From Actinomycetes bacterium (GTDB lineage: Bacteria > Actinomycetota > Thermoleophilia > RBG-16-64-13): a stretch of 64,000 nt of DNA. The notes below the pieces were generated by a model, which made no database searches, was not told the origin of the DNA, and saw only the letters and a list, made by a program, of their open reading frames with translations. Location of the stretch: the NCBI GenBank assembly GCA_021372435.1, contig JAJFUK010000110.1, positions 9,022 through 73,021 on the forward strand, in the 5' to 3' direction. This document shows positions 12,612-64,000 of the stretch, in pieces (the first letter of the stretch is position 1; each line of letters opens with the position of its first letter). Both the position numbers and the translations under genes were made by a program.

Positions 12612-12636
12612 CTCCGTGACGAATGAGGCCGCCGCG

Positions 12637-24060: not shown

Positions 24061-25506
24061 CTAGTCCGGCACCACGGCGAGATGGTCCAAGGCGGCCTTC
24101 TCATCGGCCGCCTGCAGGAAGATGCGGTGTCCGGTCTCCTGTTCGACCTGCCGGAGTAGTGGATTCCTACCTCCGAGCAGGCGCGCCGCGATGCGAGGAT
24201 GGACCTCGACACGCAGGCCGGGTGAAGTCGACGTTAGGACAAGGGCGCGCAGACGGCGCTCCACCGTGATAAGCGCCGACTCCTCGGAGACGACGCGGCC
24301 GTCCCCGTGACAGCAGGGGCAAGGCATCGTGAGCACCTCGCTCAACCCTCGGGCGACGTTCTGACGCGTCATCTCCACCAGTCCCAACGGCGACACCTCC
24401 ACGACGTAGGTCTTGGTGCGGTCCTGGGCCAGCTCCGCCTCCAGGGCCATGAGGACCGCGTCACGGTTGGACCGGGAGGCCATATCGATGAAATCGACGA
24501 CGATGATCCCGCCTATGTCACGCAGGCGGAGTTGACGGACGATCTCGCGACAGGCGTCCACGTTGGTCCTCAAGATCGTGTCCTCCAGAAACCGCCTGCC
24601 CACATAACGGCCGGTATTCACATCGATGACGGTCATGGCCTCGGTATGGTCGATGACGATGTACCCGCCCGAGGGAAGCTCCACCCGGCGCCGAAGAGCC
24701 TTCCCGACCTCTTCGTCGAGACCGAGTCGCTCGAACAGGGGGATATCGCCCTCACGCAGCTCGACCCGCCCGGCAAGGTCGGGGCTGACGGCACGGAGAT
24801 AGCCGGCCAAGCGCCGGTGAAGCTTCATGTCATCCACCAGCACGGCGTCGAACTCGGGACCGAGCAGGTCGCGCACGGCCCGCATCGCCAGGTCGGCCTC
24901 GGTGTAGACCAGAGAGGGGGCGCCCGCCACCCTTATCCGGCGCTCGACGCCCTCCCATACCCGCTGCAGGAAGCGGAGGTCGCGACCGAGGGCCTCCTCG
25001 TCCGCGCCTTCAGCCGCGGTCCGGATGATCATTCCTCCCGGAGCAGGATCAAGCGTCTTGCAGATCGACCGCAGCCTGTCCCGTTCCGCGTCGTCCAGCC
25101 GGCGCGACACTCCCAGAACGGCCGTCCGGGGCAGATACACGAGGTAGCGTCCGGCGAGCGTCAGTTGGGTGGTCAGCCGAGGGCCCTTGCTCCCCATCGC
25201 ATCCCGTGCCACCTGCACCAGCACTTCTTTGCCGCCCTGTAGCAGATCGGTGATCTTCCGCGTCTGCGTCCGCCGCCCCTCAGACATCGACACCTCGTCG
25301 ACGTAAAGAAAGCCGTTTCTGTCCAGTCCGATGTCGACAAAGGCGGCATCCATACCGGCGAGTACGTTCTCCACCCGGCCCTTGTAGATGTTCCCCACCA
25401 GCGACCGGCACCCGGGACGCTCCACGTACAGCTCGGCCGGACGGCCTTCCTCCATCACCGCCACCCGGGTCTCGAGACCATCCCGCGAGATGATGATCTG
25501 CTTCAT
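24061..25506 (-). CDS. rng: Ribonuclease E/G family endoribonuclease (short RNase G-type)
   Basis: 481 aa with an S1 domain and the RNase E/G catalytic core, no long scaffold tail. Has the conserved rng-rplU-rpmA-obg linkage. Confidence 0.85.
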   Translation of the reverse strand: MKQIIISRDGLETRVAVMEEGRPAELYVERPGCRSLVGNIYKGRVENVLAGMDAAFVDIGLDRNGFLYVDEVSMSEGRRTQTRKITDLLQGGKEVLVQVARDAMGSKGPRLTTQLTLAGRYLVYLPRTAVLGVSRRLDDAERDRLRSICKTLDPAPGGMIIRTAAEGADEEALGRDLRFLQRVWEGVERRIRVAGAPSLVYTEADLAMRAVRDLLGPEFDAVLVDDMKLHRRLAGYLRAVSPDLAGRVELREGDIPLFERLGLDEEVGKALRRRVELPSGGYIVIDHTEAMTVIDVNTGRYVGRRFLEDTILRTNVDACREIVRQLRLRDIGGIIVVDFIDMASRSNRDAVLMALEAELAQDRTKTYVVEVSPLGLVEMTRQNVARGLSEVLTMPCPCCHGDGRVVSEESALITVERRLRALVLTSTSPGLRVEVHPRIAARLLGGRNPLLRQVEQETGHRIFLQAADEKAALDHLAVVPD

Positions 25507-28170: not shown

Positions 28171-29033
28171 CGCTTCCGCGAACCGGCGAGCGCCGCCACC
28201 TTGCCGGTGGAAGCGGGAGCACCCTTCTCGAAATACCGGATGGCCGCCATGCCCATGGCCAGGGTGGCCGCGAAGCCGGTGGCCCCTTTGATCGCCCAGC
28301 CGATCCCCGAGGTCGAGCGAACCAAGGAGCGGGCCAGAGCCCGCAGACCGAAGCCCATGCCGGCGACCGCCGCCAATTCGAGCGCCCGTTCCCTGTCGAT
28401 CGATTCGCCATAGACATTCGCGATCGAGAGGGCCATCTTGATCTGATTGAGAGTCATGACCGGCATGTCGGCACCGGGCACGAAAAAGGCCAGGCCGATG
28501 AGGGCGTTCTGTCCGGCGGTCCGGTAGACGACCTGGCGCGCTGCGGCATCTCTCAGCACCGGATACCGGCGGCCCAGGGCCACCACATGACTGCCCGCCG
28601 CCCGGGCGCATGCCTCAAAAACCCGCTGCCAGCCGGAGGGCGTGTTCGAGAACGAGACGCGTAGGTAGCCCTCGCCCAGAGGCGTGATCTTGCCGGTGGC
28701 CCCCGGGCCTTCATCGACGACCAGGACCGCGCCCCCGGTCTTGACCTGCGGGAGGGCTGAACGGACCTGCGATTCCTGCGCGGGCTCGACAAAGACCACT
28801 AGGACTTCGCCGGCCATCGGCGCCGGGCCGGCCATCGGTGCCGGGCCGGCCGGTTGCGTGACCGGGCCGACCCAGGTGGCCGGTACGGTGCCTCCCGACG
28901 AGAACCGCCGCTGTGCGAGACCCACAAGCCGCGGGTCACCCGCCAGCGTGATGCCGGCGGACTCCGTGGCCTGCGAAGACGCCTCCTTCCACGCTTCCAC
29001 GATCTTGTTCAGGTTCAACGGCAACTTGGCCAC
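28167..29033 (-). CDS. Hypothetical protein with a possible DUF697/YcjF-like amphipathic C-terminal region
   Basis: 288-aa ORF between rodA and the radical SAM gene. Its stop overlaps the radical-SAM start. The C-terminal region is hydrophobic/amphipathic (LIGLAFFVPGADMPVMTLNQIKMALSIANVYG...). No confident family assignment. Confidence 0.45.
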   Translation of the reverse strand: MAKLPLNLNKIVEAWKEASSQATESAGITLAGDPRLVGLAQRRFSSGGTVPATWVGPVTQPAGPAPMAGPAPMAGEVLVVFVEPAQESQVRSALPQVKTGGAVLVVDEGPGATGKITPLGEGYLRVSFSNTPSGWQRVFEACARAAGSHVVALGRRYPVLRDAAARQVVYRTAGQNALIGLAFFVPGADMPVMTLNQIKMALSIANVYGESIDRERALELAAVAGMGFGLRALARSLVRSTSGIGWAIKGATGFAATLAMGMAAIRYFEKGAPASTGKVAALAGSRKR

Positions 29034-46664: not shown

Positions 46665-46704
46665 ATCTATCCTTTCCTCGATTCAGTTCCGGGGGCGCCT
46701 CGAG

Positions 46705-46784
46705 TGCGGGTGAGAGGACTCGAACCTCCACGTCAAAGACACATGATCCTAAATCATGCGCGTCTGCCATTCCGCCACACCCGC
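46705..46784 (-). tRNA. tRNA-Leu (anticodon TAG)
   Basis: Folds as a cloverleaf by hand: acceptor GCGGGTG/CACCCGC, D-arm GTGGCGGAAT-GGCAGACGC (Leu-type), anticodon loop TTTAGGA, long variable arm, T-loop GGTTCGAGTCC. CCA not encoded. Confidence 0.75.
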
Positions 46785-46796
46785 CGACTCCCGAGG

Positions 46797-46870
46797 GGTG
46801 AACGACGGGACTTGAACCCGCGACCGCTGGGGCCACAACCCAGTGCTCTACCAACTGAGCTACGTTCACC
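46797..46870 (-). tRNA. tRNA-His (anticodon GTG)
   Basis: Encoded G-1 opposite discriminator C73, anticodon loop TTGTGGC, T-loop GGTTCAAGTCC. Confidence 0.75.
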
Positions 46871-46910
46871 ACGTTCTCCACACCCCGGTAGCAAACCACC
46901 GGGCCCGAGA

Positions 46911-46984
<74 letters not shown>

Positions 46985-47023
46985 TCGTTCCTCCCGGCGG
47001 CAGTAGCGCACAGCCGCCGGAGG

Positions 47024-47096
<73 letters not shown>

Positions 47097-47126
47097 CTGC
47101 TCATGCCCTGCTGCTCCGCCGGACCA

Positions 47127-47203
47127 TGGTCGGGACGAGAGGATTCGAACCTCCGACCCCCTGCTCCCAAAGCAGGTGCGCTACCAGGCTGCGCCACGTC
47201 CCG
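47127..47203 (-). tRNA. tRNA-Pro (anticodon TGG), CCA encoded
   Basis: Acceptor CGGGACG/CGTCCCG, anticodon loop TTTGGGA, T-loop GGTTCGAATCC, followed by an encoded A-CCA. Confidence 0.75.
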
Positions 47204-51599: not shown

Positions 51600-52298
51600 G
51601 TGAGCATAACGGAACCGGTGCGCGATAGGGATGCCGATGTCGACGCCGATCTCGTAAAGCGCGCGCGGGAAGGCGACGAAGAGGCCCTGACGCAACTCTA
51701 CAGGCGGCATGAGCGCCGCGCCTACAACCTGGCGTTGCGCACGCTCGGCGATCCGTGGGATGCCGCCGATGTCGCCCAAGAGGCTTTCATCAAGGCCTTC
51801 AAGAACCTGGACTCGTTCAAGGGCGAGGCCCGCTTCGGCACCTGGTTGCACCGTATCGTGGTGAACGCGGCTTACGACCACCTCCGCCGGCAGAAGCCCG
51901 AACCCATGGATTCGGAGATCCTGGATGACCTGTCCGGGCCGTCCGGACCTGCGTCGGTGGTGGCCACGGGCAGAGACGGCATCGATCCCGCCGTCGACGG
52001 CCTGTCCGACCCGCTCCGACACGCTTTGATGGGCCTGAGCGAGGGGTTCCGCTTCGCGGTCGTGCTCTGCGACCTGCTCGGTTTTCCGTACAACGAGGCG
52101 GCCGACATCCTCGGGGTGCAGGAAGGAACGATCAAATCCCGCATCTTCCGAGCCAGAGAGGCGCTCGCCGCCGTACTCACGACGGCCGGCTACGGTAGTA
52201 CGATGGCCGCCGGGCGCGGCTCAGATGAGGCCGCGCCCAGGAACCAAGGCCCTGCAGGGAGCGTCACACAACAGGGCAAGTTAGGGGACGATTTGTGA
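51600..52298 (+). CDS. ECF-subfamily RNA polymerase sigma-70 factor
   Basis: GTG start. Sigma-70 region 2 (YRRHERRAYNLALRTLGDPWDAADVAQEAFIKAF) and region 4 HTH (YNEAADILGVQEGTIKSRIFRAREAL). Confidence 0.85.
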   Translation: MSITEPVRDRDADVDADLVKRAREGDEEALTQLYRRHERRAYNLALRTLGDPWDAADVAQEAFIKAFKNLDSFKGEARFGTWLHRIVVNAAYDHLRRQKPEPMDSEILDDLSGPSGPASVVATGRDGIDPAVDGLSDPLRHALMGLSEGFRFAVVLCDLLGFPYNEAADILGVQEGTIKSRIFRAREALAAVLTTAGYGSTMAAGRGSDEAAPRNQGPAGSVTQQGKLGDDL

Positions 52299-53524
52299 TG
52301 TCCAGGGGCGATCACCGAGAAGATCATCGGACTGAGCCTGACGGCAGGCCGTCCGGACACGTGGACGACTGGGAGGACCTGGCCGTCGATTTCATCGACG
52401 GGCGGCTCGACCGGGAGACCACGGCCGCCATCGAGGGCCACCTCGAGCAGTGCCCCACTTGTGCCGCCCGGCTACGGGCCCAGCAGAACATCCTGGCCTT
52501 CCTCCGGCAGACCCCTCTGCAGCAGGCGCCGGCCGGGCTTGAAGACCAGGTCTTGGACGAGGTGCTCATGCCCGCAAAGCCCGTGCGGACGCCCCGCCGG
52601 AAGGGAGAAAAGGAGCCCTTTGGCTGGTCGGCATTGTGGCGTCGTACGATCAGGCCATGGATACCCGCCACTGTGGGGGTGGCGGCCGTGCTCCTGGCGA
52701 TCGTAGGCTATGGGCTCCTGCGCCCGAGCGCCGAGGAGGAGACGGCGCAGTATGCGGCCACGACCTCCGTCACCTACGGTGAGGTCGAGACGACCTCCTT
52801 CGCCTACCGCGCATCGGACACGCCCTCCGGCGGCGAAGAAGGCGAAGACACCGTCGCCGCCGCCCCGTCCGAGACCGCTACCACGGCTGCGCCCATGACT
52901 ACGACCACGGCCGCGGGCGAAACGACGACCACGGCCGCGGGCGAAACGATGACCACGGCCGCGGACGCCCTTGAGCCCGCGCAAGGTACTGCGTCGATCC
53001 AGCCCGCGGCCGCAGGCACCCAGGATCGCAAGACCATGATCGCCGAGCTCGAGGACGCCGGAAGTCCCGCCTTCTTCGTTTTTGACACGGCGACGCTGAC
53101 GGATGAAGCTTCCGCGGAGAAAGCGGCCGCCTCGATCGTCGAACAGATCACAGCCCTCACCGGGCTGCAGCCTCTCGAGAGCGCGCTCTCCCTCGGCGCA
53201 CCTACGTTCGCCGCTTTCGTGCCGCGCGACGATGCCACACAGTTCGTCGACCTGCTACGGTCTATCGCCGCCTCAGTGCAGGTCGTCGTCAGTCTCGACA
53301 TGCAACCTCCGGAGGCGGCCGCGGACGCCACAGCCAGGCTGCTCGAGCAGAAAAGCGACCTGCCCGAGCTCTCCGCCCACCGCACACCCCAGCCGGCAGT
53401 CTCCGGTTGGTCGTTCACCACCTCGACCCTGGCGAAATCCAGAGAGGGAACGGCGGTGACGGGGGAAGCGCCACCCGACGAGGCGGGGACCCACGTGCTG
53501 GTGGTGATCTACCTGCAGGACTGA
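52295..53524 (+). CDS. Zinc-finger (zf-HC2 / ZAS-type) transmembrane anti-sigma factor
   Basis: Start overlaps the sigma factor stop (GTGA). N-terminal HLEQCPTCAAR zinc motif, one TM helix, and an extracytoplasmic domain with Thr/Ala-rich tandem repeats (TAAGETTTTAAGETMTTAAD). Confidence 0.7.
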   Translation: MMSRGDHREDHRTEPDGRPSGHVDDWEDLAVDFIDGRLDRETTAAIEGHLEQCPTCAARLRAQQNILAFLRQTPLQQAPAGLEDQVLDEVLMPAKPVRTPRRKGEKEPFGWSALWRRTIRPWIPATVGVAAVLLAIVGYGLLRPSAEEETAQYAATTSVTYGEVETTSFAYRASDTPSGGEEGEDTVAAAPSETATTAAPMTTTTAAGETTTTAAGETMTTAADALEPAQGTASIQPAAAGTQDRKTMIAELEDAGSPAFFVFDTATLTDEASAEKAAASIVEQITALTGLQPLESALSLGAPTFAAFVPRDDATQFVDLLRSIAASVQVVVSLDMQPPEAAADATARLLEQKSDLPELSAHRTPQPAVSGWSFTTSTLAKSREGTAVTGEAPPDEAGTHVLVVIYLQD

Positions 53525-53594
53525 CCGGGATCCGGGCTTGGATCTACTCGGCCCTATGTTGCGGACACGCCGCCGGCGCCAGCAGGCCCCTGGA

Positions 53595-53671
53595 TGGTCG
53601 GGGTGCCGGGATTTGAACCCGGGACCTCATCGTCCCGAACGATGCGCGCTACCAGGCTGCGCTACACCCCG
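53595..53671 (-). tRNA. tRNA-Pro (anticodon CGG), CCA encoded
   Basis: Acceptor CGGGGTG/CACCCCG, anticodon loop TTCGGGA, T-loop GGTTCAAATCC, encoded A-CCA tail. Confidence 0.75.
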
Positions 53672-53722
53672 CCGTTCAACTGCCATCGACCACTTCGACG
53701 GTGGCCTATTGTATACCATCGC

Positions 53723-56700
53723 CTACGGGCGGGCCACGGCCGCGCAGACCCACGCCACCGGGCAACGCGCGCACTCCTCGCTTGTCCTGGCAGGGAACTC
53801 CCTCCGCCCCAGGTCACCGAGAACGCCGTCCAGACTACTTTCCAGGCGAGGGATGTCGCCCCTACCGAACCGCCTGGTCTGCGGCTCCGCCGGGTCTTCC
53901 AAGAACACGAAATCCATCTGCACTGCGGGAGCGCCGGCAAGCAGCGCCGCGAGGCAATAGACGATCGCCTGGAGCTCGTAGCTCGACATGAGCTCGGCCG
54001 GGGCGCGGCCGGCAAGCGCGTTGGTCTTGTAGTCGATGATGCGCCAGCACTCGTCATCGCGAAGGACCAGGTCCATGACACCTGAGAGCAGAGCGTCCCC
54101 CCGGGCGAAAAAGAAATGGGCCTCGCGGGCCGCGGCCGGGTGGGACCACGTACCGGCCGCCGGCATCTTCCAGAAAGCCAGGGTGAGGGCGACCGCCCGC
54201 TCCACATCGGCCGGCGACAGCTCGACCCCGGTCTGCAGGAGCCAGGCGTCGGCCTCCCTCCGCACGGACTCCTCGGCCGGAGGCCCATCCCCTACCGGTA
54301 GCCTCTCCAGCAGCGCGTGCGTCAGGAGCCCTACGTCGCGACCCGTCTGCCGCTCGTCCGGGTCGAGAAGCAGGTCCCCCGGCGGGGGAGCATCATCTGC
54401 CTCGTCGTCATCGCCGCGCTCGATCCCCTCCCGATCGAGGCCCAACATACGCTCGAGGTAGAAGCGCCGGGGGCACCTCTGATACGCCGCAAGCGCGGAA
54501 AAACTCAGGTGATGGGGTACGCCGGCCCGCGGCGCCGCCACTAAGAACTCGGGCGAGGACTCAGGCCCTGACTCTCGTGGGGACTCAGACGGGGACTCAG
54601 ACGGGGGCTCAGACGGGAGCTCGGCCGACATCCCGCGGCCCTCGCCGTCCGGCGCGCCGCCGGCCTTCATCTGCGGCCGCGCGGGAGCCGGCGGCGCTCC
54701 CGATCCTACGACCGGAATGCTCGCGACGACCGCGTCGAGACCGTCGAGGGTGGCGCTCTCGCCCTCGGCCGGCAGGCCTTGCAGCCCAAGACCGACGATG
54801 GTGCGGCCGATCCGCGAGCCGTCAAGCCGTTCCCCCACCGGCCTCGCCCCGATGAGGATCAACCGCTGTTGCGCACGCGTCATCGCCACATACAGGAGCC
54901 TGACATCTTCTTCGTTCTCCCTTTCCCGACCTTGTGCGACCACCTCCGCACCCGGTCCCCACGAAAGGTCGTACGCTTCGTAGTTCTCCCGTTTGGAGCC
55001 TTTGAGAAAGACTGCCATCCGGCCGTCGTCGCCCACGACCACGTCCGGAGTCTCACCGTGGAACACGTCCGACCCGAGGCCGGCCAACACCACTACGGGG
55101 AACTCCAGGCCTTTTGCCTGATGGATGGTCATCAGCCGCACCACGTCGTCGCCTTCGGCCAGCGTGGGAGCGCTTCCCTCCTGGTCGCTCAGGTCTCCCA
55201 TCGACGCGATCAGCTTCACGAAGCCGGCGAGATCGGGTCCCTCGAGGGCCTCGAAGTCGCGCGCCATGCGCATCAATTTCCCCACGTTCGCGAACCGTCG
55301 CATCCCGTCCGGCGAGGCAAGCAGGCATCGATCGTAGGCGCAGATACTAACGGCCTCGTCGATCAGTCGAGCCAGACCCGGCCGGCCCACCCGCCGCCGG
55401 AGCCCGTCCAGACGGACGGCGAACGCTTCTAGGAGCATCCGGTCTTCGTGTCCCAGGGCGGCGACCTTTCCGCTTCTGACAACATCCCAGAGCGAGGCCC
55501 CGTCCTTGCCCTTCTGGCGACCGAGGTGATAGAGGGCGTCGTCGGAGATCCCGACCAGAGGCGACCGTAGGGCGGCCACCATGGCCAGGTCGTCGTGAGG
55601 ACTGACCAGGAGCCGGAGTAGCGACACGATGTCTGCGACCTCTTCCTGCGCGTAGTAGCCCTTGCCCCGCACCACATAGACCTGCAGACCGGCAGCAAGT
55701 AAGGCCCGGCGATAGATATCGACGTACGTGTAAGCGGGCAGCAGGACCACGATGTCGCGCTGCAGGTAGCCTTCTTCGTGGATGAGTGAGCGGATCCGTG
55801 CGGCTACCACCCGCGCTTCCGCCTCCGGGATGGAGAGAAGGAGCTTGGCCGGGTCGGTAGGCACCCCCCGCTCCGCGACCAGGACTTCGACGGCGGCCCC
55901 TCCGGCCCGGGAAGCGACGGCCGGCCGGGCCGGAGCGGAGGGCGCCCGCCCGGGATACACGGTCGTCGTCGCGGGCCCGCCGGTGCTCGGCGCCGGCCGC
56001 GGCGCCGGCCGGGCCGTGATGTCGGTCGCCTCCGCGGGCTCCTCTTCCGGATCAGGCGGAAGCAGCGGCTTGAAGTCCGCTCCGAAGTAGCTCGGGTGCG
56101 CGAACAGCCGGTTCACGAAGTCGAGGATCTCCTTGCGACTCCGGTAGTTGGTGTCAAGCCGGTAGAGAGTCCCGGCCGGGTCGTCCGCGGCTTTGGAGCC
56201 GAGTTCCTCCTCCCGCTTCCTGAACACCTGGACGTCGGCCCCCCGGAACCGATAGATGCTCTGCCGGTAGTCGCCCACCATCAGAAGCCGGGTCGCGCCG
56301 AGACCCTCGAGGATCGAGCACTGCACCTCGTTGGTGTCCTGGAACTCGTCGATCAGGACCCAGCAGCCCGGCAGGACCGGGTCTGACGCACCCGCTCCGC
56401 CTCTGCCCGACACGAGCGCCCGGGCCCGGAGCTCGAGGTCGGTGAAATCCAGCATCCCTCGTTCCCGCTTGCGGGCCTCGTACCGCTGATGGAATTCCAT
56501 CAGCAGCCTGTTGACGGTCGAGACCAGCGGCCGCAGGCGCAGCTCCGCCAGTGCGGACCGATACTGTGTCAGCGCTTCGCGCACCGGCTCGAAGTCGGCT
56601 TCCATCGACCGGGTCCGCCGGCTCGGGAAGAAGTCAAGGGTCTCAGCGAGCCTGGCGGCCCGCTCCTCGTCAGACATACGGCCTTCGAGCCACTGGAGGC

Positions 56701-57379
56701 ACGCCCGCAGCCGGTCCACATCGGCCTGCAGTGAGGAACCGGGGCGCGCCGACACCCGCACGGCCGCGAGCGCCCGGTCGATGGCCTCGACCAAGCGGTC
56801 GCGCGCCCACCCCGGCGGAGGTCCGGGAGCGATGGTCACCTGCGGTTGGTCGTAGCCCAGCCCACGCAGCCGGTCGTAGAGAGGCCCTATCTGCCTCCGC
56901 AGACCGTCCCGGCCGGAGGCCAGGACTTCGAGCTCCATCTCGTCGACGTCCTCGGCCACGCGCTCCCAGGCCTCCCGGCCGGTCTCTTGCTTGACCAGAG
57001 CGGCCGCCTCCGCCTCGAGCACCGAACAAGCCGGATCGACTCCCACCTCAAGCGCCCGGTCTGTGATCAAACGCCGGCAGAGAGCGTGGATCGTCCCGAT
57101 AGTGGCCGCGTCCAGAGACCAGGCCAAGTCGCTCCTCCCCCGAAGTCGAAGCTCGCAACGGATGCGATCGGCCAGTTCGGCGGCCGCCTTCCGGGTGAAG
57201 GTGACGGCCACCAGCCGGTCGGCCGGAATGCCCTCCTCGAGGAGGGCGCGGACGAAGTACGCCACGAGAAGCCGGGTCTTGCCGCTCCCTGCGGCGGCGG
57301 ACACCAGTATTCTCGGACGAGGGTCAAGCACCACCGGCTCCTGCGTCTTGGACAGTCTGGTGCCTTGCTCGCCGGTCAT
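53723..57379 (-). CDS. addA: AddA-like helicase-nuclease subunit (UvrD-family helicase plus C-terminal PD-(D/E)XK nuclease)
   Basis: N-terminal ILVSAAAGSGKTRLLV Walker A typical of AddA/RecB, with UvrD-like motifs throughout. C-terminal RecB-type nuclease (LSFSALAAYQRCPRRFYL ... IIDYKTN). ATG at 57379 overlaps the addB stop (ATGA). The track ORF begins at 57430. Confidence 0.8.
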   Translation of the reverse strand: MTGEQGTRLSKTQEPVVLDPRPRILVSAAAGSGKTRLLVAYFVRALLEEGIPADRLVAVTFTRKAAAELADRIRCELRLRGRSDLAWSLDAATIGTIHALCRRLITDRALEVGVDPACSVLEAEAAALVKQETGREAWERVAEDVDEMELEVLASGRDGLRRQIGPLYDRLRGLGYDQPQVTIAPGPPPGWARDRLVEAIDRALAAVRVSARPGSSLQADVDRLRACLQWLEGRMSDEERAARLAETLDFFPSRRTRSMEADFEPVREALTQYRSALAELRLRPLVSTVNRLLMEFHQRYEARKRERGMLDFTDLELRARALVSGRGGAGASDPVLPGCWVLIDEFQDTNEVQCSILEGLGATRLLMVGDYRQSIYRFRGADVQVFRKREEELGSKAADDPAGTLYRLDTNYRSRKEILDFVNRLFAHPSYFGADFKPLLPPDPEEEPAEATDITARPAPRPAPSTGGPATTTVYPGRAPSAPARPAVASRAGGAAVEVLVAERGVPTDPAKLLLSIPEAEARVVAARIRSLIHEEGYLQRDIVVLLPAYTYVDIYRRALLAAGLQVYVVRGKGYYAQEEVADIVSLLRLLVSPHDDLAMVAALRSPLVGISDDALYHLGRQKGKDGASLWDVVRSGKVAALGHEDRMLLEAFAVRLDGLRRRVGRPGLARLIDEAVSICAYDRCLLASPDGMRRFANVGKLMRMARDFEALEGPDLAGFVKLIASMGDLSDQEGSAPTLAEGDDVVRLMTIHQAKGLEFPVVVLAGLGSDVFHGETPDVVVGDDGRMAVFLKGSKRENYEAYDLSWGPGAEVVAQGRERENEEDVRLLYVAMTRAQQRLILIGARPVGERLDGSRIGRTIVGLGLQGLPAEGESATLDGLDAVVASIPVVGSGAPPAPARPQMKAGGAPDGEGRGMSAELPSEPPSESPSESPRESGPESSPEFLVAAPRAGVPHHLSFSALAAYQRCPRRFYLERMLGLDREGIERGDDDEADDAPPPGDLLLDPDERQTGRDVGLLTHALLERLPVGDGPPAEESVRREADAWLLQTGVELSPADVERAVALTLAFWKMPAAGTWSHPAAAREAHFFFARGDALLSGVMDLVLRDDECWRIIDYKTNALAGRAPAELMSSYELQAIVYCLAALLAGAPAVQMDFVFLEDPAEPQTRRFGRGDIPRLESSLDGVLGDLGRREFPARTSEECARCPVAWVCAAVARP

Positions 57380-60300
57380 GGACGATACTCCCCCCGCCGG
57401 GCGCGGCAGGCCGGCCCGAGCGGGCACCACGACGGGCAGGGCCGGTCGGCCCGCGGAGCGATGACCCCGGTCCGCATGCCTTCGGCGGCGTCAATAGCGG
57501 TCTGCACCGTGAGCCGAGACAGCTCCTCCAGGCCCGGCTCATCGAGCGACCTGATCCCGGCAGCCCCTGAGCCGAGCACCCACTCCGCCCCGGCCGCCAC
57601 CACGCCGGAGCGTTTCTTGTCGAACAATGAGAGGTACGCCCCGCCGATGACGCCCGCTCGGGGCCGCTCCGCGGCAAGGGCCAGCAGATACAGCGGCAAC
57701 TGCAGCGCTTCGCCCGTCCCTAAAGCCTTCGGCGGCGGGATGGCGCCCGTCTTGTAATCGAGGATGAACACCCCCGTGCCGTCGGGAGTGGCATCGACGC
57801 GATCGATGCGTCCCCGCACCCTGAGCCCGCCGATGTCCACGCCCCGGTTACCTCCCACCCACATCTCGGACTGCGAGAACGTCAGTGGGCCCGCGGCGGC
57901 GGCCTCCATATCGAAGAGGTTCCGCGCCATGCGCTTCAGCCTCCAGGCGGCCAGCCGCCGCTCTGAGAAGGAGCCCGGACACCGGTCTTCCCAGACGAGC
58001 CGGTCGACGACGTCGCACGCGACCTGCCCGGCCCGGCGGACGCCCGGCTCCCTTAGGGGCAGAAGACCTTCCGCCGACAGCGTGCGGTAGGTCTCGCTGA
58101 GCACATCGTGCAACAATCGCCCGATCATACGGCCGTCCAGTTCCAGATCGATATCCTCAGCTCCGACGACCCTCTCCACGAACCACCTGAAGGGGCAGTC
58201 CGCATACGCCTCGAGCGCCGATGGGTTGAAGCATCCGGTGGAGGCGAGCTCCTCCAAGACGGCCGGATCAGCCAGGCGGGAGGGCGGGCGGCCCCACGGC
58301 GGCACTGCCTCTCCGAATCCGAGCGCGACCACGGCCGGATGGGGCGCACACCCGTACGCGGCGCACGCCCTCAGGTAGTGCCGCAGTGACGGAGCTTTGT
58401 GGAGGGCGAAGACCTGGTCGGCCAGAGTGCGGTACTCGGGGAAGGACCCGTCGAGTCCCAGCAATCGTCTCGCCTCCTGCCAGTAAGGGGATGGGACGCT
58501 CTCCGTCCCGTCGTCCTCCGCGTCCCGCGCGCTGAGAAGAAGCAGGCGCCATGGCCGCGAGATGGCGCTGACGAAGAAGGCCGCCTCTTGGTCGGGTTCC
58601 GGGGGAAGAAGACCTCCTCCCGCCTCGTCGAGCCGTGCCCGTTGACCGGCGCTGAGCAGGGAAGGCCGGTCGGGGCTCCCCGGGAACTCCCCTTCGGCCA
58701 GACCCAGTATCACCACCGCCTGGAACCGGCGGGCGCGCGCTCTCTGCACGCTGAGTATCTGGACCGCATCATCGTCCTCAGAGCGTTCCCCGGGCACCGC
58801 CACACGGCCCAGGGAGTGCAGCACGAGCCGGGGATCGAGCCGGTCGGAGCGGCCGGCTTCTGCGCCGCCCACGTCCATCGAGGCGCCCAGCGACGCGAGG
58901 GATATCATCGTCCGCAACGCTCCCTGCAACGCCCGGAACACCCGCACATCCTCCGCCGCCGTCCGGTCGGTCAACCGGCAATCGTGCAGCCCGGCGATCA
59001 ACATGTCGTGAATCAGACTCCCGGCGGCCGCCGGCACGAACCACGGCCCGGCTCCCTCGGGGACCGCCGCCGGGGTGAGAACATGACCGCGAGCGACCTC
59101 CACTCCCGGCTCGCGGCCCACATCGGACCCGACGGCGACCCAATCGACCATCTTCCAGAGCCGCTCCACTCGACCCGAGCCTCCATCCGCGGCGATCCGC
59201 GCCACGGCCCGGGCGCCCCGCGCAGTCCCCCGCCGGTATGCGAGCTCCAGGTCACCCGTCTCCTCAAGGGAGAGACCGCTGTAGGGACTGCGCAGATAGG
59301 CCAGCAAAGCCTCGCCCTCGTCCAGGCTCACTCCCCGCAGCGCCTGCAGGAAGGCATGGCCGAGCCCCGTCTCGCGCACGCAGGGACGATCGTCCATGTG
59401 ATAGGGGATGCCGCACGACTCGAAGACATCCCCAAGAAGGCCGCTCCATGGGCGGACGTGCCGCACGATGACCGCAATCTGACCCGGTCTGCAGCCGCCC
59501 CTGATCAGGTCGGCGACCTTCTCTGCCGCCAGCTCCGCCTCGGCACGCCGGCCGGAGGCCAGAAGGAACCGGACTCCGTCATCCTTCGAGCACGCCGGCG
59601 CCGCCTCGCGCGCCGGCGGCCGGTCGGCCGCACACATGAAGTACCGCTCCAGATAAGCGACGGCCGCAGACGTGTAGGCGCGCTCCGGAGGCGCCACCTC
59701 CTTCACCTCGGAGGCCCTTGAGATCCACCAGGAGATCTCCCCCGGCGTGCTGAGATTGACGGCCCGGGAGCGATCATACGTGAACGTGACGAGCACCTCC
59801 GCCCGGCGGGACAGCGCCTCGACGAGAGCCCGTTGTCCGGCGGTGAAGGACGTGAAGCCGTAGAAGGCGACCGGTCTCTCCCAGGCGCCGGCGGCGGGTC
59901 TCGCTTCGCGCACGGCGACCGGGCGGTCGGTGAGGCCGAGGGCGGCGTAGATCTTCTCCTGAGCCCGGGCCAGCCGCCGGATATCGCCGGCCAAGGCGCC
60001 CGACCGGGGATCGCTCACCGCCCAACGGGCAAGGACGCGGTCGAGGTCATCACGGTCCCTGCCGCTTTGCCACAACTGCTCCAGCAGCTCGACGAGCCCC
60101 GTGACCACGCCCGGAAGGTGCATCGACGCGGAGAGGGCCTCGAGACGGGTCTCGCGAAGAATGCGGCCTGCGATCAGCGTGCGTTCTAGGTCGGTCGCGT
60201 AACGAGGGGACCGGCCCAGGACGAGGCGCACCAGGCCGTCGAAAGTGAGGGCCCGGTCTTGCCCGACCAATCCTCCGAGCCGCCCGGCCATCTCCAACGA

Positions 60301-60447
60301 GACCTGGTGCGCGTCGGGTCCCGTAGGAACCACCACCACAGGTCGCCGGGTAAGCCTCTCCTGCCACCAGTCGAGGACCAGCCCCTGCTTGCCGGAGTTG
60401 GCCGGACCTACAACGAGCGTCAGTCGCTTGGGAGACGATCCACTCAT
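57376..60447 (-). CDS. addB: AddB-like helicase-nuclease subunit (degenerate ATP-binding N-terminus plus Fe-S PD-(D/E)XK nuclease)
   Basis: The internal ATG at 60447 gives an N-terminus MSGSSPKRLTLVVGPANSGKQG (AddB-type Walker A). The 408 codons upstream are an open antisense overlap with the pafBC-like gene. C-terminal nuclease with an AddB-like four-Cys arrangement (CPFRWF ... CPSWCPLGPAC) and the DYKTG motif. Confidence 0.75.
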   Translation of the reverse strand: MSGSSPKRLTLVVGPANSGKQGLVLDWWQERLTRRPVVVVPTGPDAHQVSLEMAGRLGGLVGQDRALTFDGLVRLVLGRSPRYATDLERTLIAGRILRETRLEALSASMHLPGVVTGLVELLEQLWQSGRDRDDLDRVLARWAVSDPRSGALAGDIRRLARAQEKIYAALGLTDRPVAVREARPAAGAWERPVAFYGFTSFTAGQRALVEALSRRAEVLVTFTYDRSRAVNLSTPGEISWWISRASEVKEVAPPERAYTSAAVAYLERYFMCAADRPPAREAAPACSKDDGVRFLLASGRRAEAELAAEKVADLIRGGCRPGQIAVIVRHVRPWSGLLGDVFESCGIPYHMDDRPCVRETGLGHAFLQALRGVSLDEGEALLAYLRSPYSGLSLEETGDLELAYRRGTARGARAVARIAADGGSGRVERLWKMVDWVAVGSDVGREPGVEVARGHVLTPAAVPEGAGPWFVPAAAGSLIHDMLIAGLHDCRLTDRTAAEDVRVFRALQGALRTMISLASLGASMDVGGAEAGRSDRLDPRLVLHSLGRVAVPGERSEDDDAVQILSVQRARARRFQAVVILGLAEGEFPGSPDRPSLLSAGQRARLDEAGGGLLPPEPDQEAAFFVSAISRPWRLLLLSARDAEDDGTESVPSPYWQEARRLLGLDGSFPEYRTLADQVFALHKAPSLRHYLRACAAYGCAPHPAVVALGFGEAVPPWGRPPSRLADPAVLEELASTGCFNPSALEAYADCPFRWFVERVVGAEDIDLELDGRMIGRLLHDVLSETYRTLSAEGLLPLREPGVRRAGQVACDVVDRLVWEDRCPGSFSERRLAAWRLKRMARNLFDMEAAAAGPLTFSQSEMWVGGNRGVDIGGLRVRGRIDRVDATPDGTGVFILDYKTGAIPPPKALGTGEALQLPLYLLALAAERPRAGVIGGAYLSLFDKKRSGVVAAGAEWVLGSGAAGIRSLDEPGLEELSRLTVQTAIDAAEGMRTGVIAPRADRPCPSWCPLGPACRARRGEYRP

Positions 60448-60519
60448 GATTGGGCTTATTGTAGAGCCCCGTCCGGACGGATGCTGTCCATCACCCCGGT
60501 AGTGCGCTAGTCTTACGCC
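60448..60519. promoter_or_regulatory. Divergent promoter region between addB and the pafBC-like gene
   Basis: 72-bp spacer. On the minus strand a TACAAT hexamer sits about 10 nt upstream of the addB ATG. On the plus strand a TAGTCT hexamer ends 6 nt before the pafBC-like ATG, suggesting a leaderless transcript. A TGTCCATCAC element lies between them. Confidence 0.3.
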
Positions 60520-62661
60520 ATGAGCCGCGACGACGACAAGCTCATACGCCAGCTGTCCCTCATCTCGTTCCTCCTGAGCCGTCCGCGGCCGTTCACCGCG
60601 CGCGAGATCCAGGAGTCGGTGGAAGGCTATGCTGAGATGACCGACGAGACATTCACGCGCCGGTTCCACGCCGACCGCGCCGACCTGGCCAGGGTCGGCA
60701 TCCAAGTACGGGTGCTCAGTGGCTCGGAGGCGGCTTACTCCACCGAGGCCCAACTGTACCTGCTCAGCGAGGAGGACTTCCGTCTGCCCCTCGTGGACTT
60801 CACGCCGGCCGAGGTACAGGCCCTCTCCCTCGCGCTCGCGGCCCTGGACGGCCGCTTCGCGTACGCCCGCCCGCTGCGCATGGCGCTGACGGCCGTGTTG
60901 CACGGACGGCAAGACCCCATCCAGACTGAGCTTGAGCAGTTGCCCGTGGCTCTTGCCCCGGACGAGGACGCCCGCCGGGCCAGGCGCCAGCTCTCCCGCT
61001 TGGAGGAGGCGGTCACGAGAGGAAAGACGGTCTGCTTCTCCTACCCCGCGGGTGATGGCGGCCTGCGGGAACGCACGCTCGATCCCTACGGCCTCTACCT
61101 GATCCAAAGCCATTGGTACGTGGTCGGTCGCGACCATCTGCGCGACGGCATCCGGATGTTCCGCTTGGGCAGGATCCAAGGAGCCGTGCGCTTTCTTACC
61201 GACAAGGTCCGCGATTTCTCGATCCCCCCCGATTTCGACCCCGGCGAGTACGGCGCACGGCCGCCGTGGATGATCGGTCCTCTCCAGGGAACAGCCCTGG
61301 TCAAGGTCGGAGACGACCTCGCGTGGTGGGTCGAACGTCTGCGGCCCCATGTGACCCGCGCGGCCGATGAGCCGGAGGGGTGCGCGGTCTTCGCCATGCC
61401 GTACGCCGACGAATCGGTCTTCCTCTCGTGGGTAGTGGGCCTTGGCGGCTGTGGCGAGCTCTTGGAGCCCGATGGGCTGCGGGCCGGGTTGAGGGAGTCC
61501 CTCACCGCCATCTGCAGAGCGCACGAGGATGACGTTGAGAACGGCCACGGCGAAGTGACCGGGGCGGCCCATGAGGCAGCGGCCGGCGAGAGTCGCGGCG
61601 AGCAGGAGCCGGGCGGCCCTTCCGAAAAGCAGGAGCCCGAAGATCTGGAGGCCGCCATAGCTCCCGAGCACATAGCCCGCGCGATCACGCTCCTTTGTTA
61701 TCTGGTCGACGAACGACGGCCGCCTTTGATCACGTGGCAGACCCTGGAGAACGACCTAGGCCTCACCCGCGCCGAGGTCGAGCGCGACCTGTCCCTGATC
61801 AACCTCGTCAATTACGGCGGAGGGACGTTCGCCCTCATGGCTGAAGCCGGCCCCGAAGGGGTCAAGGTGGCGAGGGACATCATGGCCGACACGTTCGCCC
61901 ATCCTGCCCGGTTGTCACCGGGGATGGCCCGGGCGTTGCTTCTCGCCCTCGACCTCCTCGGCGACACCGTCGCGCTGGAGGGGCTCGAGTCGCTGTCGTC
62001 GGTCCGCGAGAAGGTCCACGCGCTCATCGGGGCCGAGAGCGCCGAGGGCGCCGTCATCGTCGACGAGGTCTTCCCGCCCGACCCAGGGATCGTGGAGGTC
62101 CTCAACCACGCCGTTCGCGACCGGTCGCTCGTCGCGCTCGATTACTACAGCGCCACCAGACAGGAGCTCTCCGAGCGGCGCGTGGAGCCGTATCTGCTCT
62201 TCCACTCGCCGGACGGCTGGTACTTAGAGGCCTACTGCCTCAAGGCGCAGGAGCAGCGTACGTTCAAGCTCGACCGCATCCGTTCCGCCCGCAGCACCGG
62301 GGAGACCTTCACGCCCCGCGCTGAGGTCGACCTCAGCCCACACAGGGCCGGCCGGGCCTTCCTCGAGCACGATGTGGCCACCTGGGCCACTGTGCGCTTC
62401 AGGCCTCGTTGGCGCACCTATCTTGAGGATTCGGGCCGGGAGTACACGCGCCGGACCGACGGCCACCTGGTCGTCAGGATGCCTTACGTGGACGAGCGCT
62501 GGATGGCGCACGAGGTCATCCGTTTTCTCGGGGACGCCGTGCTTGAAAGGCCGGCTTCGGCGCGGCGCAAGGTCGCCGAAGTCGCGCGCGCGCTGCTCAC
62601 CCGCTACCAGGAGGACCGCCCGGCCACCCGTCCGGCCGGCTCTCCTGGGGAGGTCCAGTGA
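60520..62661 (+). CDS. pafBC: Fused double HTH-WYL-WCX transcriptional regulator (PafBC-like)
   Basis: 713 aa with two successive modules. Each has an N-terminal winged HTH (LIRQLSLISFLLSRPRPFTAREI / ARAITLLCYLVDERRPPLITWQTL), a WYL domain (PYGLYLIQSHWYVVGRD / PYLLFHSPDGWYLEAYC) and a C-terminal extension. This matches naturally fused PafB-PafC proteins. Confidence 0.7.
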   Translation: MSRDDDKLIRQLSLISFLLSRPRPFTAREIQESVEGYAEMTDETFTRRFHADRADLARVGIQVRVLSGSEAAYSTEAQLYLLSEEDFRLPLVDFTPAEVQALSLALAALDGRFAYARPLRMALTAVLHGRQDPIQTELEQLPVALAPDEDARRARRQLSRLEEAVTRGKTVCFSYPAGDGGLRERTLDPYGLYLIQSHWYVVGRDHLRDGIRMFRLGRIQGAVRFLTDKVRDFSIPPDFDPGEYGARPPWMIGPLQGTALVKVGDDLAWWVERLRPHVTRAADEPEGCAVFAMPYADESVFLSWVVGLGGCGELLEPDGLRAGLRESLTAICRAHEDDVENGHGEVTGAAHEAAAGESRGEQEPGGPSEKQEPEDLEAAIAPEHIARAITLLCYLVDERRPPLITWQTLENDLGLTRAEVERDLSLINLVNYGGGTFALMAEAGPEGVKVARDIMADTFAHPARLSPGMARALLLALDLLGDTVALEGLESLSSVREKVHALIGAESAEGAVIVDEVFPPDPGIVEVLNHAVRDRSLVALDYYSATRQELSERRVEPYLLFHSPDGWYLEAYCLKAQEQRTFKLDRIRSARSTGETFTPRAEVDLSPHRAGRAFLEHDVATWATVRFRPRWRTYLEDSGREYTRRTDGHLVVRMPYVDERWMAHEVIRFLGDAVLERPASARRKVAEVARALLTRYQEDRPATRPAGSPGEVQ

Positions 62662-63104
62662 AAGGCCTGGCCCGCTGGGTGGCGGACTCCCTGGGCTTCT
62701 ATCTCGCCCTCTATCTCGTGGATTCGTTGATATCGCCGCGCTTCCATGTGGGCGCGGTGTGGATGGCGGTGGTACTTGCCGTCTTCCTCGGGCTGGTGAA
62801 CAGCCTGGTCCGCCCTCTCCATCGGGTGAAGAGCAAACCGGCCGTGGCCATCGGTAAGGCGGTGTCGACCGTCCTCTTCAACGCGCTCGTGCTCCAGATC
62901 GCGATCTGGGCAGGAGCACCCCTGGCGGCGACCGGCCCGGTCTGGGTCCTGGTCATGGCGACGTTCTTGACATTCCTCGGCGGCCTCATGAACTGGCTGA
63001 TCGGCTTCAAGAAGAAGGAGAAGCCGGGTGCGCCCGCGCGTGAACGCCGGGCCGCGCGCGCGTCGGCCCCCCGTGAGGTCGGGACGTCGCGGAAGCAGAC
63101 CTAG
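62658..63104 (+). CDS. Small polytopic membrane protein, holin-superfamily-IV-like (PF04020-type)
   Basis: GTG overlaps the pafBC-like stop (GTGA). 148 aa with 3-4 TM helices, an LVNSLVRPL motif like the 4-TM 'phage holin 4_2' family, and a basic C-terminal tail. Confidence 0.5.
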   Translation: MKGLARWVADSLGFYLALYLVDSLISPRFHVGAVWMAVVLAVFLGLVNSLVRPLHRVKSKPAVAIGKAVSTVLFNALVLQIAIWAGAPLAATGPVWVLVMATFLTFLGGLMNWLIGFKKKEKPGAPARERRAARASAPREVGTSRKQT

Positions 63105-63265
63105 AGGCTGCTGAAAAACGACGCTGCGTCGTCAGCGCGATGGCTGCGGGCGAGAGAAGAACGCAGGAAGCGCGAATAGCAGCGCTACTTGCGCGACCGA
63201 GGACGCTCTGTCGCGCCGGCCGGTGTGTCTTGGCGGCCGTGGCTTCGTTTTTCAGCAGCCTCTAG
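63101..63265. repeat. 165-bp element bounded by perfect 20-bp inverted repeats
   Basis: CTAGAGGCTGCTGAAAAACG at 63101..63120 and its exact reverse complement at 63246..63265, separated by 125 bp that contains smaller palindromes. Lower GC than its surroundings. Lies between the convergent holin-like and pilT genes. The left arm includes the holin-like gene's TAG stop. Confidence 0.5.
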
Positions 63266-63282
63266 CGAGACTCCCCGGCTTC

Positions 63283-64000
63283 CTAGTCGATGACCGCCAT
63301 CTCGTGGCCTCGGGCCTGGGCCATCAGCCGGAAATCATGGGGGTTGCTGGCCACCAGATAGGCGTCTGTAAGCGTGACCATTCCCCTCTCGAACAGATCG
63401 AGCAGGCTCTGATCGAACGTCTGCATGCCGTAGAAATCGCCCTCCTGCATGGCAGTGTGGATGTGGTGGGTCTGCTGAGGATCGAGGATCAGGTCGCGTA
63501 TGCGGCCCGTCACCACCATCACTTCCACCGCCGGCACCCGCCCCAGCCCGTCCGAGCGCGTCAGCAACCGCTGGGAGATGATGCCGCGCAGCGAGCCGGC
63601 CAGCATGATGCGCACCTGCTTTTGCTGATACAGCGGGAAGAAGTCGATGATGCGGTTGACGGTCTCGGTCGCGTCGATGGTGTGAAGCGTACTGAGGACG
63701 AAGTGCCCGGTCTGAGCGGCGCTCAGAGCCGTGCGCACCGTCTCTTGGTCCCGCATCTCGCCGATGAAGATGATGTCGGGATCTTGCCTGAGCACGTACT
63801 TGAGGGCCGAACCATAGTTCTCCGTGTCGAGCCCCACCTCGCGCTGGTTGATTATGCACATCTGGTCCCTGTGGAGGATCTCGATAGGATCCTCGACGGT
63901 GACGATATGCCGGCGGAGATGATGGTTGATGTGGTCGATCATCGCCGCCAGCGTGGTGGTCTTGCCTGAGCCGGTCGTCCCGGTGACGAGCACCATCCCT
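63283..64000 (-). CDS. pilT: Type IV pilus retraction ATPase PilT/PilU (C-terminal part; the N-terminus is beyond the window)
   Basis: LVTGTTGSGKTTTLAAMIDHIN Walker A, VEDPIE, GEMRD and TGHFVLSTLHT motifs of the PilT family. The ORF is open at the window edge. Confidence 0.85.
   Translation of the reverse strand, partial: GMVLVTGTTGSGKTTTLAAMIDHINHHLRRHIVTVEDPIEILHRDQMCIINQREVGLDTENYGSALKYVLRQDPDIIFIGEMRDQETVRTALSAAQTGHFVLSTLHTIDATETVNRIIDFFPLYQQKQVRIMLAGSLRGIISQRLLTRSDGLGRVPAVEVMVVTGRIRDLILDPQQTHHIHTAMQEGDFYGMQTFDQSLLDLFERGMVTLTDAYLVASNPHDFRLMAQARGHEMAVID

Follow-up and report, generated by a model that had tools for sequence, protein, structure and literature searches.

The window analysed here (a 64-kb stretch of contig JAJFUK010000110.1, taken at its full length of 64,000 nt) contains an operon for an AddAB-type helicase-nuclease, addB-addA, divergently transcribed from the gene of a fused double-WYL regulator that is assigned to the PafBC family and is followed by the gene of a small PF04020 membrane protein. 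The best explanation of the locus is a chromosomal double-strand break (DSB) resection operon of an uncultured Thermoleophilia (Gaiellales-like) soil actinobacterium. With a probability of roughly 0.7, the regulator is a single-stranded DNA (ssDNA)-sensing activator of the PafBC family that drives addBA from a hybrid promoter by sigma adaptation. The arrangement is far beyond chance, since it recurs in 37 syntenic loci from metagenome-assembled genomes (MAGs), at two loci from a distant clade and at three where the regulator is split. The four open reading frames (ORFs) lie where a preceding sequence-only reading of this DNA had placed them, with addA and addB on the minus strand facing the regulator and the PF04020 gene on the plus strand. 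The divergent layout across 72 bp and the GTGA overlap between the regulator stop and the start of the PF04020 gene, both described in that reading, are borne out:

53723..57379 (ORF from 57430), minus strand: addA, a superfamily 1A (SF1A) UvrD-type motor with a C-terminal RecB-type nuclease
57376..60447, minus strand: addB, an inactivated helicase-like N-terminal region with a C-terminal "iron-staple" RecB nuclease
60448..60519: spacer of 72 bp between addB and the regulator
60520..62661, plus strand: fused regulator of 713 aa, two helix-turn-helix (HTH)-WYL-WCX modules
62658..63104, plus strand: PF04020 membrane protein of 148 aa, overlapping the regulator stop as GTGA

Translation of addA most likely begins at ATG 57379 rather than at the first in-frame GTG (57430), because this ATG overlaps the addB stop as ATGA and 4-nt overlaps are also found in three relatives (L001, L003 and L004).

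The shared spacer and its promoters

An alignment of 39 unique spacers of the Gaiellales type shows two predicted promoters placed back to back. In the window, their elements are:

60458..60463, minus strand: TACAAT, predicted -10 hexamer of addB, identical in 39 of 39 spacers
60473..60480, minus strand: putative PafBC-type "-26 element", reading CCGTCCGG, with its GTC at 60476-60478
60484..60489, plus strand: CTGTCC, -35-like hexamer of the regulator, 18 nt upstream of its -10 (consensus gCTGACC in relatives)
60508..60513, plus strand: TAGTCT, predicted -10 of the regulator, present at 39 of 39 loci and used as the alignment anchor

On the addB side, the GTC lies exactly 12 nt upstream of the -10 in 36 of the 39 unique spacers, is replaced by ATC in two and is shifted by 1 nt in one; the minus-strand consensus is C-Y-GTCCG-(N10)-TACAAT. 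Neither the alignment nor a scan for sigma-70 sites places a -35 hexamer at the expected position of this promoter. Over 53300-63400, the sigma-70 consensus scan detects no canonical promoter, which fits hybrid or weak promoters and counts as negative evidence only. The addB ATG follows TACAAT by 10 nt in the window and by 8-12 nt across loci, so the addB mRNA is probably leaderless or nearly so. The motif bound by mycobacterial PafBC in vivo, tGTCgg(N10)tA(N3)T, combines a -26 element with a canonical -10 and has no -35 (PMC8635444), and yGTCCG-N10-TACAAT has the geometry of such a promoter. A search of 889 kb of related sequence for GTC[CG]G-N10-TANNNT returns 53 matches, 36 of which are the addB spacer site. 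The three loci with a split regulator (L050-L052) carry CTGTCCG-N10-TACAAT, CCGTCCG-N10-TACAAT and CCGTCCT-N10-TAGAAT, and the spacers of the two loci of the distant clade (L040 and L042) contain GTCCG-N10-TAAGAT and GTCCG-N10-TAGAAT. The sequence-only reading had singled out the spacer as a place for a PafBC operator; the box is indeed there and conserved, although it is not callable from the window alone. No second conserved PafBC-type promoter occurs within ±10 kb (43 sources), leaving no definable regulon beyond addBA, and the uvrD/pcrA gene of the window has no PafBC-type site.

The regulator promoter looks conventional. CTGTCC, or CTGACC in relatives, probably serves as its -35, but the element could alternatively provide the minus strand with a second site containing GTC. 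A T and an A follow TAGTCT in at least 80 % of loci and the start codon comes 6-7 nt further on. As the ATG is 6 nt from TAGTCT in the window, the regulator mRNA is probably leaderless too. The GCGCTAGTCTTAGCGC-like sequence at the regulator -10 was also considered as a LexA box or palindromic operator; this idea was dropped, as the palindrome is inconsistent across loci.

CapW and BrxR are WYL repressors of adjacent operons, and the double-WYL protein might act as they do, binding the GTCCGG box in what would be the -35 region, blocking addBA and being released by ssDNA. A divergent regulator beside its target is a layout typical of local repressors, and the -26 box of the window sits in a perfect 12-nt palindrome, CCGTCCGGACGG (60469-60480), the type of site used by symmetric repressor dimers. 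However, this palindrome is not conserved in relatives, which keep only the CCGG core and the asymmetric yGTCCG, always 10 nt from the -10. The fixed spacing and the asymmetry suit an activator site coupled to the polymerase better than an operator acting independently, and the addB promoter has no -35 for basal transcription. In addition, the regulator scores 15-20 orders of magnitude better against PafBC than against CapW or BrxR, and its halves are unlike, with HTH_PafC in the second half only, as in the asymmetric PafBC heterodimer. Repression of this kind is therefore improbable.

The spacer between addB and the regulator is longer in some loci, 100-200 bp compared to 72 bp (L005, at 9823-9975, L008, L016, L017, L034 and L045). 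The additional length consists of perfect tandem copies, of a 15-nt unit with the GTCCG box (2.3 copies) and of a 16-nt unit with the CTGACC element (5.2 copies); these expansions look like natural operator or promoter duplications.

Identity of the regulator and its neighbourhood

The description of the 713-aa protein as a fused, PafBC-like double HTH-WYL-WCX regulator holds. Pfam detects two stretches each of WYL (3e-40) and WCX (4e-21), and HTH_PafC at residues 384-500 (33.8 bits, cut-off 32). The sequence-only reading had allowed for a protein without a match to PafB or PafC profiles; instead, the two are matched separately by the two halves:

60520..61533, plus strand: PafB-like half (HTH-B, WYL-B, WCX-B), matching PDB PafB 7p5x_AY at 6e-24 over residues 7-223
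61534..61665, plus strand: acidic, disordered linker of ~45 aa, with a predicted local distance difference test score (pLDDT) below 50 over residues 338-382
61666..62661, plus strand: PafC-like half (HTH-C, WYL-C, WCX-C), matching PDB PafC 7p5x_AX at 2.6e-29 over residues 384-694

In a single-sequence search of the PDB, the fused PafBC of Arthrobacter aurescens (6sj9) ranks first, followed by PafC and PafB of Mycobacterium smegmatis. The family profile also has 6sj9 as its best match, at E 1e-43 and collinear over residues 12-694. Foldseek places 6sj9 on top (E 1e-30), then PafB and PafC bound to RNA polymerase, then DriD, BrxR and CapW. The AlphaFold (AF2) model behind this ranking is mediocre (pLDDT 64.8; predicted TM-score, pTM, 0.35) and served domain-level fold ranking only, with low TM-scores. 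Two arginines of the PafB-like half, R212 and R215, are invariant in the regulator alignment and line up with RxFR in A. aurescens PafBC. They correspond to R211 and R214 of M. smegmatis PafB, which are needed for ssDNA binding (PMC11804915). For DNA recognition, HTH-B of M. smegmatis PafB uses R46 and R50 to read two GTC guanines (PMC8635444), and R47, the equivalent of R46, is invariant in the family, while the R50 position holds Gly or Ala. The sequence and fold matches place the regulator in the PafBC family, as a natural fusion with a double WYL. Natural PafB-PafC fusions are already known (PMC6789036), and fused and split forms are interleaved in the lineage, so the fusion itself is not the point of interest.

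The regulator adjoins the resection machinery rather than pafA and the proteasome, a claim of the sequence-only reading that can be confirmed for the 64-kb window and the annotated flanks. The window encodes no Pup_ligase, Pup or Proteasome domain, and the annotated flanks of six relatives (L001, L003, L004 and L050-L052) hold no Pup-proteasome genes. In a control locus (L053), the same tools recover a PafB homologue (P0431, 29 % identity) within a full arc-dop-pup-prcB-prcA-pafA-pafB-pafC-tatC-helY locus, so the absence around addAB is a real negative for the neighbourhood. A literature search on pupylation in Thermoleophilia found nothing.

The second cistron of the regulator operon was initially described as a holin-family protein with four transmembrane helices. 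The family match stands, with 37.5 bits to PF04020 (DUF360, YvlD-type) over residues 7-107 compared to a gathering threshold of 28.8, and so does the small multi-helix membrane architecture; hydropathy gives three clear hydrophobic helices, one weaker helix and a basic C-terminal tail. A holin role finds no support, as the protein has no phage relatives by tblastn in 50,697 phage genomes and no PHROG match, the gene is missing from the second clade (L040 and L042) and "holin" is a Pfam name only. To our knowledge, no holin activity is documented for this PF04020 branch. The gene follows the regulator in core-genome synteny and not in a lysis-cassette context. Among the 27 loci in which the fused regulator frame is intact, 26 have the start codon of the PF04020 gene (ATG, GTG or TTG) overlapping the regulator stop by 4 nt. 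This conserved overlap points to obligatory co-expression more strongly than synteny alone would, and the gene is predicted to be translationally coupled to the regulator. The Firmicute YvlD is an uncharacterised member of yvlABCD, a sigma-W/Psp-like envelope-stress operon (PMC12791056). Here the PF04020 protein is treated as an accessory of the circuit.

The helicase-nuclease and its distribution

AddA matches UvrD-helicase (6e-45), UvrD_C (3e-32) and PDDEXK_1 (1e-26) in Pfam and has intact motor motifs (Walker A GSGKT, motif II DEFQD) and the nuclease motif D..DYK. AddB has a C-terminal PDDEXK_1 domain (3e-34) and a weak ADDB_N match, which reaches 5.5e-21 in the orthologue from L042, and gives no match to Pfam UvrD-helicase. 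It keeps a Walker A-like GPANSGK[Q/M/L], whereas Walker B is lost, with YGFTSFT standing where DExx would be. Its nuclease residues D882, D897 and K899 are conserved, D..D-x-K sites being retained in both subunits. Four cysteines (C751, C1004, C1008 and C1014), conserved in ~40 orthologues, predict an "iron-staple" iron-sulphur (Fe-S) cluster; the cluster cysteines of Bacillus subtilis AddB are C801, C1121, C1124 and C1130 (PMC3321194). The domains, cysteines and motifs that an AddA-like and an AddB-like subunit with Fe-S-type cysteines in AddB should have, as first proposed from sequence, are accordingly all present.

Comparison with both known enzyme types favours AddAB. AddA matches B. subtilis AddA (3u44_A) at 1e-62 and AdnB at 1e-18, and the AddB family profile matches AddB (3u44_B) at 9e-59 and AdnA at 5e-28; AddB is the best PDB match of this subunit with a single sequence as well as with the profile. 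A single motor with two nucleases is the AddAB pattern, in contrast to AdnAB (PMC3321194). AdnAB was rejected as an identity, given the much weaker scores to AdnA and AdnB and the lack of Walker B in the AddB-like subunit. In NCBIfam, AddA reaches 318.6 bits with addA_Gpos (TIGR02785; equivalog cut-off 707.65) and AddB 56.8 bits with addB_Gpos (TIGR02773; equivalog cut-off 903.7). As these scores are far under the cut-offs, the proteins probably represent a divergent AddAB branch, best called "AddAB-type".

The AddA nuclease domain (window 53740-54480) carries a four-cysteine set of its own, C986, C1220, C1223 and C1229 of the 1235-aa ORF (C-x233-C-x2-C-x5-C), with the same "iron-staple" pattern as that of AddB and retained in 35-36 orthologues. 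In B. subtilis, Fe-S ligands are described in AddB only (PMC3321194). Because of this conserved set, the enzyme may hold two Fe-S clusters. A comparison of the AddA nuclease domain alone with PDB AddA, aimed at the cysteine positions, gave no significant match, so the statement that B. subtilis AddA has no cluster rests on PMC3321194. At the helicase-nuclease junction, AddA also has a low-complexity Pro/Ser/Glu linker encoded by in-frame 12-nt tandem repeats (3.2-3.7 copies, 54579-54622).

AddAB and RecBCD enzymes degrade linear phage DNA, and WYL regulators are common in defence loci. The locus can be read as an anti-phage or abortive-infection module, with the helicase-nuclease attacking or sensing invading linear DNA, the WYL protein detecting the nucleic-acid fragments that result and the holin-family protein disrupting the membrane. 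PADLOC reports WYL and GajB-type helicase matches, and PF04020 carries the "phage holin" name. However, the PADLOC matches are to generic domains only (UvrD, through GajB and DRT helicase models, and WYL), while AddB and the PF04020 protein match no model. The two subunits are complete AddA and AddB proteins that show all features of the repair enzyme, and conserved core-genome synteny surrounds the locus, where GC is uniform and mobility genes are absent. The PF04020 protein lacks relatives in the phage genomes and PHROGs searched, YvlD belongs to an envelope-stress operon (PMC12791056), and the gene is absent from the second clade, which keeps the addAB-regulator pair. With PADLOC, PHROGs and phage tblastn giving generic matches or none, the defence reading was rejected as very improbable. 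The preference for DNA repair over defence, already voiced in the sequence-only reading, is strengthened by the conserved PafBC-type promoter, the core synteny and the merely generic PADLOC matches.

Regulator homologues are numerous, the named ones being from Thermoleophilia or Gaiellales MAGs, and the layout is found in ~40 Thermoleophilia/Gaiellales-like MAG loci. In 37 of them, with regulators that are 53-72 % identical, the gene order is the same: extracytoplasmic function (ECF) sigma and anti-sigma genes, addA and addB facing the regulator and the PF04020 gene, then PilT-like ATPase and cell-wall genes. As the whole 20-kb neighbourhood is syntenic, adjacency within this Gaiellales-type clade is not independent evidence. 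The second clade (L040 and L042) has a GC content of 56 %, regulators that are 32-33 % identical to that of the window and AddB proteins that are 38 % identical to each other. There, addA-addB still faces a fused regulator, amid otherwise entirely different neighbours and without PF04020. Three further loci (L050, L051 and L052) have the same layout, including PF04020, with the regulator encoded by pafB-like and pafC-like genes that overlap by 4-8 nt and break at the position of the fused linker. The linkage of addAB and the regulator thus outlives synteny. A rough neighbour-joining (NJ) tree, which carries no support values, mixes fused with split forms and sets the whole group apart from canonical PafB.

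About ten loci, mostly from long-read assemblies (L014, L029, L030, L033, L034, L036, L037, L041, L044 and L045), have premature stops in the regulator, with similarity continuing downstream. These interruptions are probably assembly frameshifts and not pseudogenes. For the same reason, some apparently "split" regulators in databases may be artefactual; the pairs of L050-L052 overlap cleanly. Fused regulators also occur among other neighbours and without addAB (L038 and L039). In L039, the regulator is convergent with a 1107-aa DprA fusion (12177-15500, minus strand), and in L049 six genes separate addB from a DprA gene (1-583) located ~6.4 kb upstream of it. This proximity of DprA may reflect a further association of the regulator family with DNA recombination.

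The window has a GC content of 66 % and reads as ordinary core chromosome; it also encodes the dcw cluster, pcrA/uvrD, obg, proB, RNase G, mreBC-PBP2-rodA, valS, lon, clpX, trigger factor and a tRNA cluster. The locus is flanked by ECF sigma, anti-sigma and tRNA-Pro genes on one side and by PilT-like and cell-wall genes on the other, at uniform GC. No mobility genes were found around it. The ECF sigma gene and its 409-aa zf-HC2 anti-sigma partner (51600-53524, plus strand) are constant neighbours of addBA throughout the Gaiellales-type clade; the anti-sigma gene contains an in-frame repeat (24 nt × 2.7, 52901-52964). Between it and the addA 3' end, directly downstream of addA, lies a single tRNA-Pro(CGG) gene (53595-53671, minus strand). 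Five further tRNA genes (Leu-TAG, His-GTG, Arg-TCT, Gly-TCC and Pro-TGG; 46704-47203, minus strand) adjoin the trigger factor gene. Neither this cluster nor the lone tRNA-Pro(CGG) shows integrase or island features. Elsewhere in the window, a 1026-aa fusion of Radical_SAM_N2, Radical_SAM and DUF2344 (25531-28611, minus strand) lies directly upstream of an RNase E/G gene (24061-25506, minus strand).

The proposed circuit and known systems

In the proposed circuit, the regulator and the PF04020 protein would be expressed from the promoter of the regulator itself (CTGACC-like -35, 18 nt, TAGTCT), on a leaderless and translationally coupled message. Upon DNA damage, ssDNA would be the ligand and would bind the WYL/WCX tunnel, with R212 and R215 of the PafB-like half as key residues. 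The PafB-like HTH would then recognise GTC within the -26 element (yGTCCG), which 10 nt separate from the downstream addB -10 TACAAT, and the PafC-like HTH would contact region 4 of sigma-A, allowing the housekeeping RNA polymerase to fire a promoter without a -35 ("sigma adaptation"). The regulator would thereby activate rather than repress the addB promoter. AddAB, with its single AddA motor and two predicted Fe-S "staple" nucleases, would rise and resect DNA ends. Resection would yield more ssDNA, a possible positive feedback until repair clears the signal. Resection by AddAB could plausibly provide the ssDNA ligand in a feed-forward loop. AdnAB and RecBCD are members of the PafBC regulon in M. 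smegmatis (PMC8223512), and AddAB has been raised as the likely source of the ssDNA signal in the DriD system by the DriD authors (PMC9186387).

Several observations weigh against this proposal. The regulator is just 22-30 % identical to characterised PafBC, and the rough tree separates its lineage from Pup-proteasome-linked PafB. R50 of M. smegmatis PafB aligns to a glycine or alanine (G/A51), with invariant R48 and R53 nearby, so the DNA read-out may differ. CapW and BrxR, which are repressors, appear among the structural relatives in the fold search. Taken alone, the window contains two matches to GTCCG-N10-TANNNT (0.93 expected) and six to GTC-N12-TANNNT (7.9 expected), in neither case above chance; such counts are uninformative, and the significance of the motif rests on its conservation across loci. 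The comparators are all MAGs, several of them long-read assemblies with frameshifted ORFs. In the second clade, the CCGGACGG box lies 8 nt before the regulator ATG and could be its ribosome-binding site. Finally, no WYL gene adjoins the AddAB operons that are most distant (L047-L049, Gaiellaceae among them); L047 has no motif, L049 has a mismatch in the GTC triplet and L048 has TGTCAG-N10-TACGAT.

These distant operons bear on whether the adjacency has a dedicated regulatory meaning at all. The regulator could be a global damage master, or regulate something else, and the spacer elements could be ordinary ones read by another factor. An addAB operon that has no WYL neighbour and yet retains a motif, as in L048, would fit a global factor acting in trans, and both the synteny of the 20-kb neighbourhood and the fused regulators without an addAB neighbour (L038 and L039) are compatible with mere adjacency. 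However, the pairing survives the full loss of synteny in L040 and L042, as well as gene fission or fusion, and the GTC-N12-TANNNT geometry, specific to PafBC promoters (PMC8635444), is located exactly in the shared spacer. Furthermore, the regulator could combine a global role with a local target. Adjacency devoid of such meaning is accordingly held to be rather improbable, and direct activation of addBA by its neighbour is preferred.

The L048 motif lies ~25 nt before the addB ATG and, with no WYL neighbour, hints at control of addB in trans by a PafBC-type factor. In L048 (6650-6850) and L049 (6718-6912), a 64-66-aa ORF with CxxC...CxxC and a basic tail lies directly upstream of addB.

A more far-reaching view, which is doubtful, takes the AddAB-linked PafBC-like lineage as a proteasome-independent, possibly ancestral PafBC response and the locus as a self-contained feedback module in which AddAB would generate the ssDNA that turns on its activator, with PF04020 as a functional partner and not a bystander. 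The membrane protein might then be, for example, a tether or antagonist that sets the regulator threshold, or a damage-linked division or envelope effector.

The name of PafBC and its presumed logic derive from its place in the Pup-proteasome locus. If activation of addBA by the regulator is correct, the PafBC mechanism (-26 GTC box and -10 without a -35, ssDNA-sensing WYL) would reach deep-branching Thermoleophilia without proteasome linkage and would be linked in cis to the enzyme producing its presumed ligand. Actinobacteria would then be served by AddAB-type enzymes too, beyond AdnAB or RecBCD. The practical value is modest, as the biology is predictable to a specialist and all members are uncultured. 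Nonetheless, the 72-bp spacer with two leaderless genes would offer a minimal one-promoter test system for sigma adaptation, and the natural arginine substitution together with the slightly different box could inform how PafB reads DNA.

Among known systems, PafBC (PafB and PafC in M. smegmatis and Mycobacterium tuberculosis, fused in A. aurescens; PDB 6SJ9, 7P5X and 9FND) is like the present regulator in its two HTH-WYL-WCX modules with an HTH_PafC-type second HTH, in the collinear match of sequence and fold, in the conserved ssDNA-binding arginines of WYL-B and in a target promoter with a -26 GTC and a -10 but no -35; end-resection enzymes belong to its mycobacterial regulon (PMC8223512). 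There are also differences. The regulator described here is not beside pafA, pup or prcBA, and is instead head-to-head with its target operon and co-translated with PF04020. Its box is yGTCCG and not tGTCgg, its linker measures ~45 aa and not ~20 aa, the equivalent of R50 is Gly or Ala, and low identity (22-30 %) and the rough tree set it apart as a separate lineage. DriD of Caulobacter, an ssDNA-sensing WYL activator of SOS-independent damage genes, and SiwR of M. smegmatis, a WYL activator of DNA-damage genes that controls adjacent genes (PMC10693628), are functionally similar. However, both are single-chain homodimers at upstream operators and not asymmetric two-module proteins between sigma region 4 and DNA, and their fold and sequence scores are much weaker than those of PafBC.

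The helicase-nuclease resembles B. subtilis AddAB (PDB 3U44 and 4CEH) in gene order and coupled translation, in the active SF1A motor and RecB nuclease of AddA, and in an AddB with an inactivated helicase-like domain and a four-cysteine iron-staple nuclease (PMC3321194). It differs in the AddB Walker A, which has no Ser/Thr after the Lys, in the four-cysteine set of AddA, in scores far below the equivalog cut-offs and in its actinobacterial host, AdnAB being the type restricted to actinomycetes (PMC3321194). Mycobacterial AdnAB (PDB 6PPJ and 6PPR) is likewise an actinobacterial heterodimeric motor-nuclease for DSB resection and a member of the M. smegmatis PafBC regulon (PMC8223512), but both of its subunits keep Walker A and B (dual motor, dual nuclease), unlike the AddB-like subunit here, which has no Walker B. 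The PF04020 protein shares with YvlD/DUF360 ("Phage_holin_4_2") a score above the gathering threshold and a small multi-helix membrane architecture. Whereas YvlD belongs to the Firmicute yvlABCD envelope-stress operon (PMC12791056), the gene here is the distal one of a DNA-damage-regulator operon, with a 4-nt overlap. Set against these systems, PafB-PafC fusions and PafBC control of AdnAB and RecBCD are known already, and none of the parts would surprise a specialist. The novelty lies in a PafBC-like lineage, in fused or split form, that is off the Pup-proteasome locus and linked in cis with an AddAB-type operon of deep-branching actinobacteria, together with its co-translation with PF04020, one changed DNA-reading arginine and a slightly different box.

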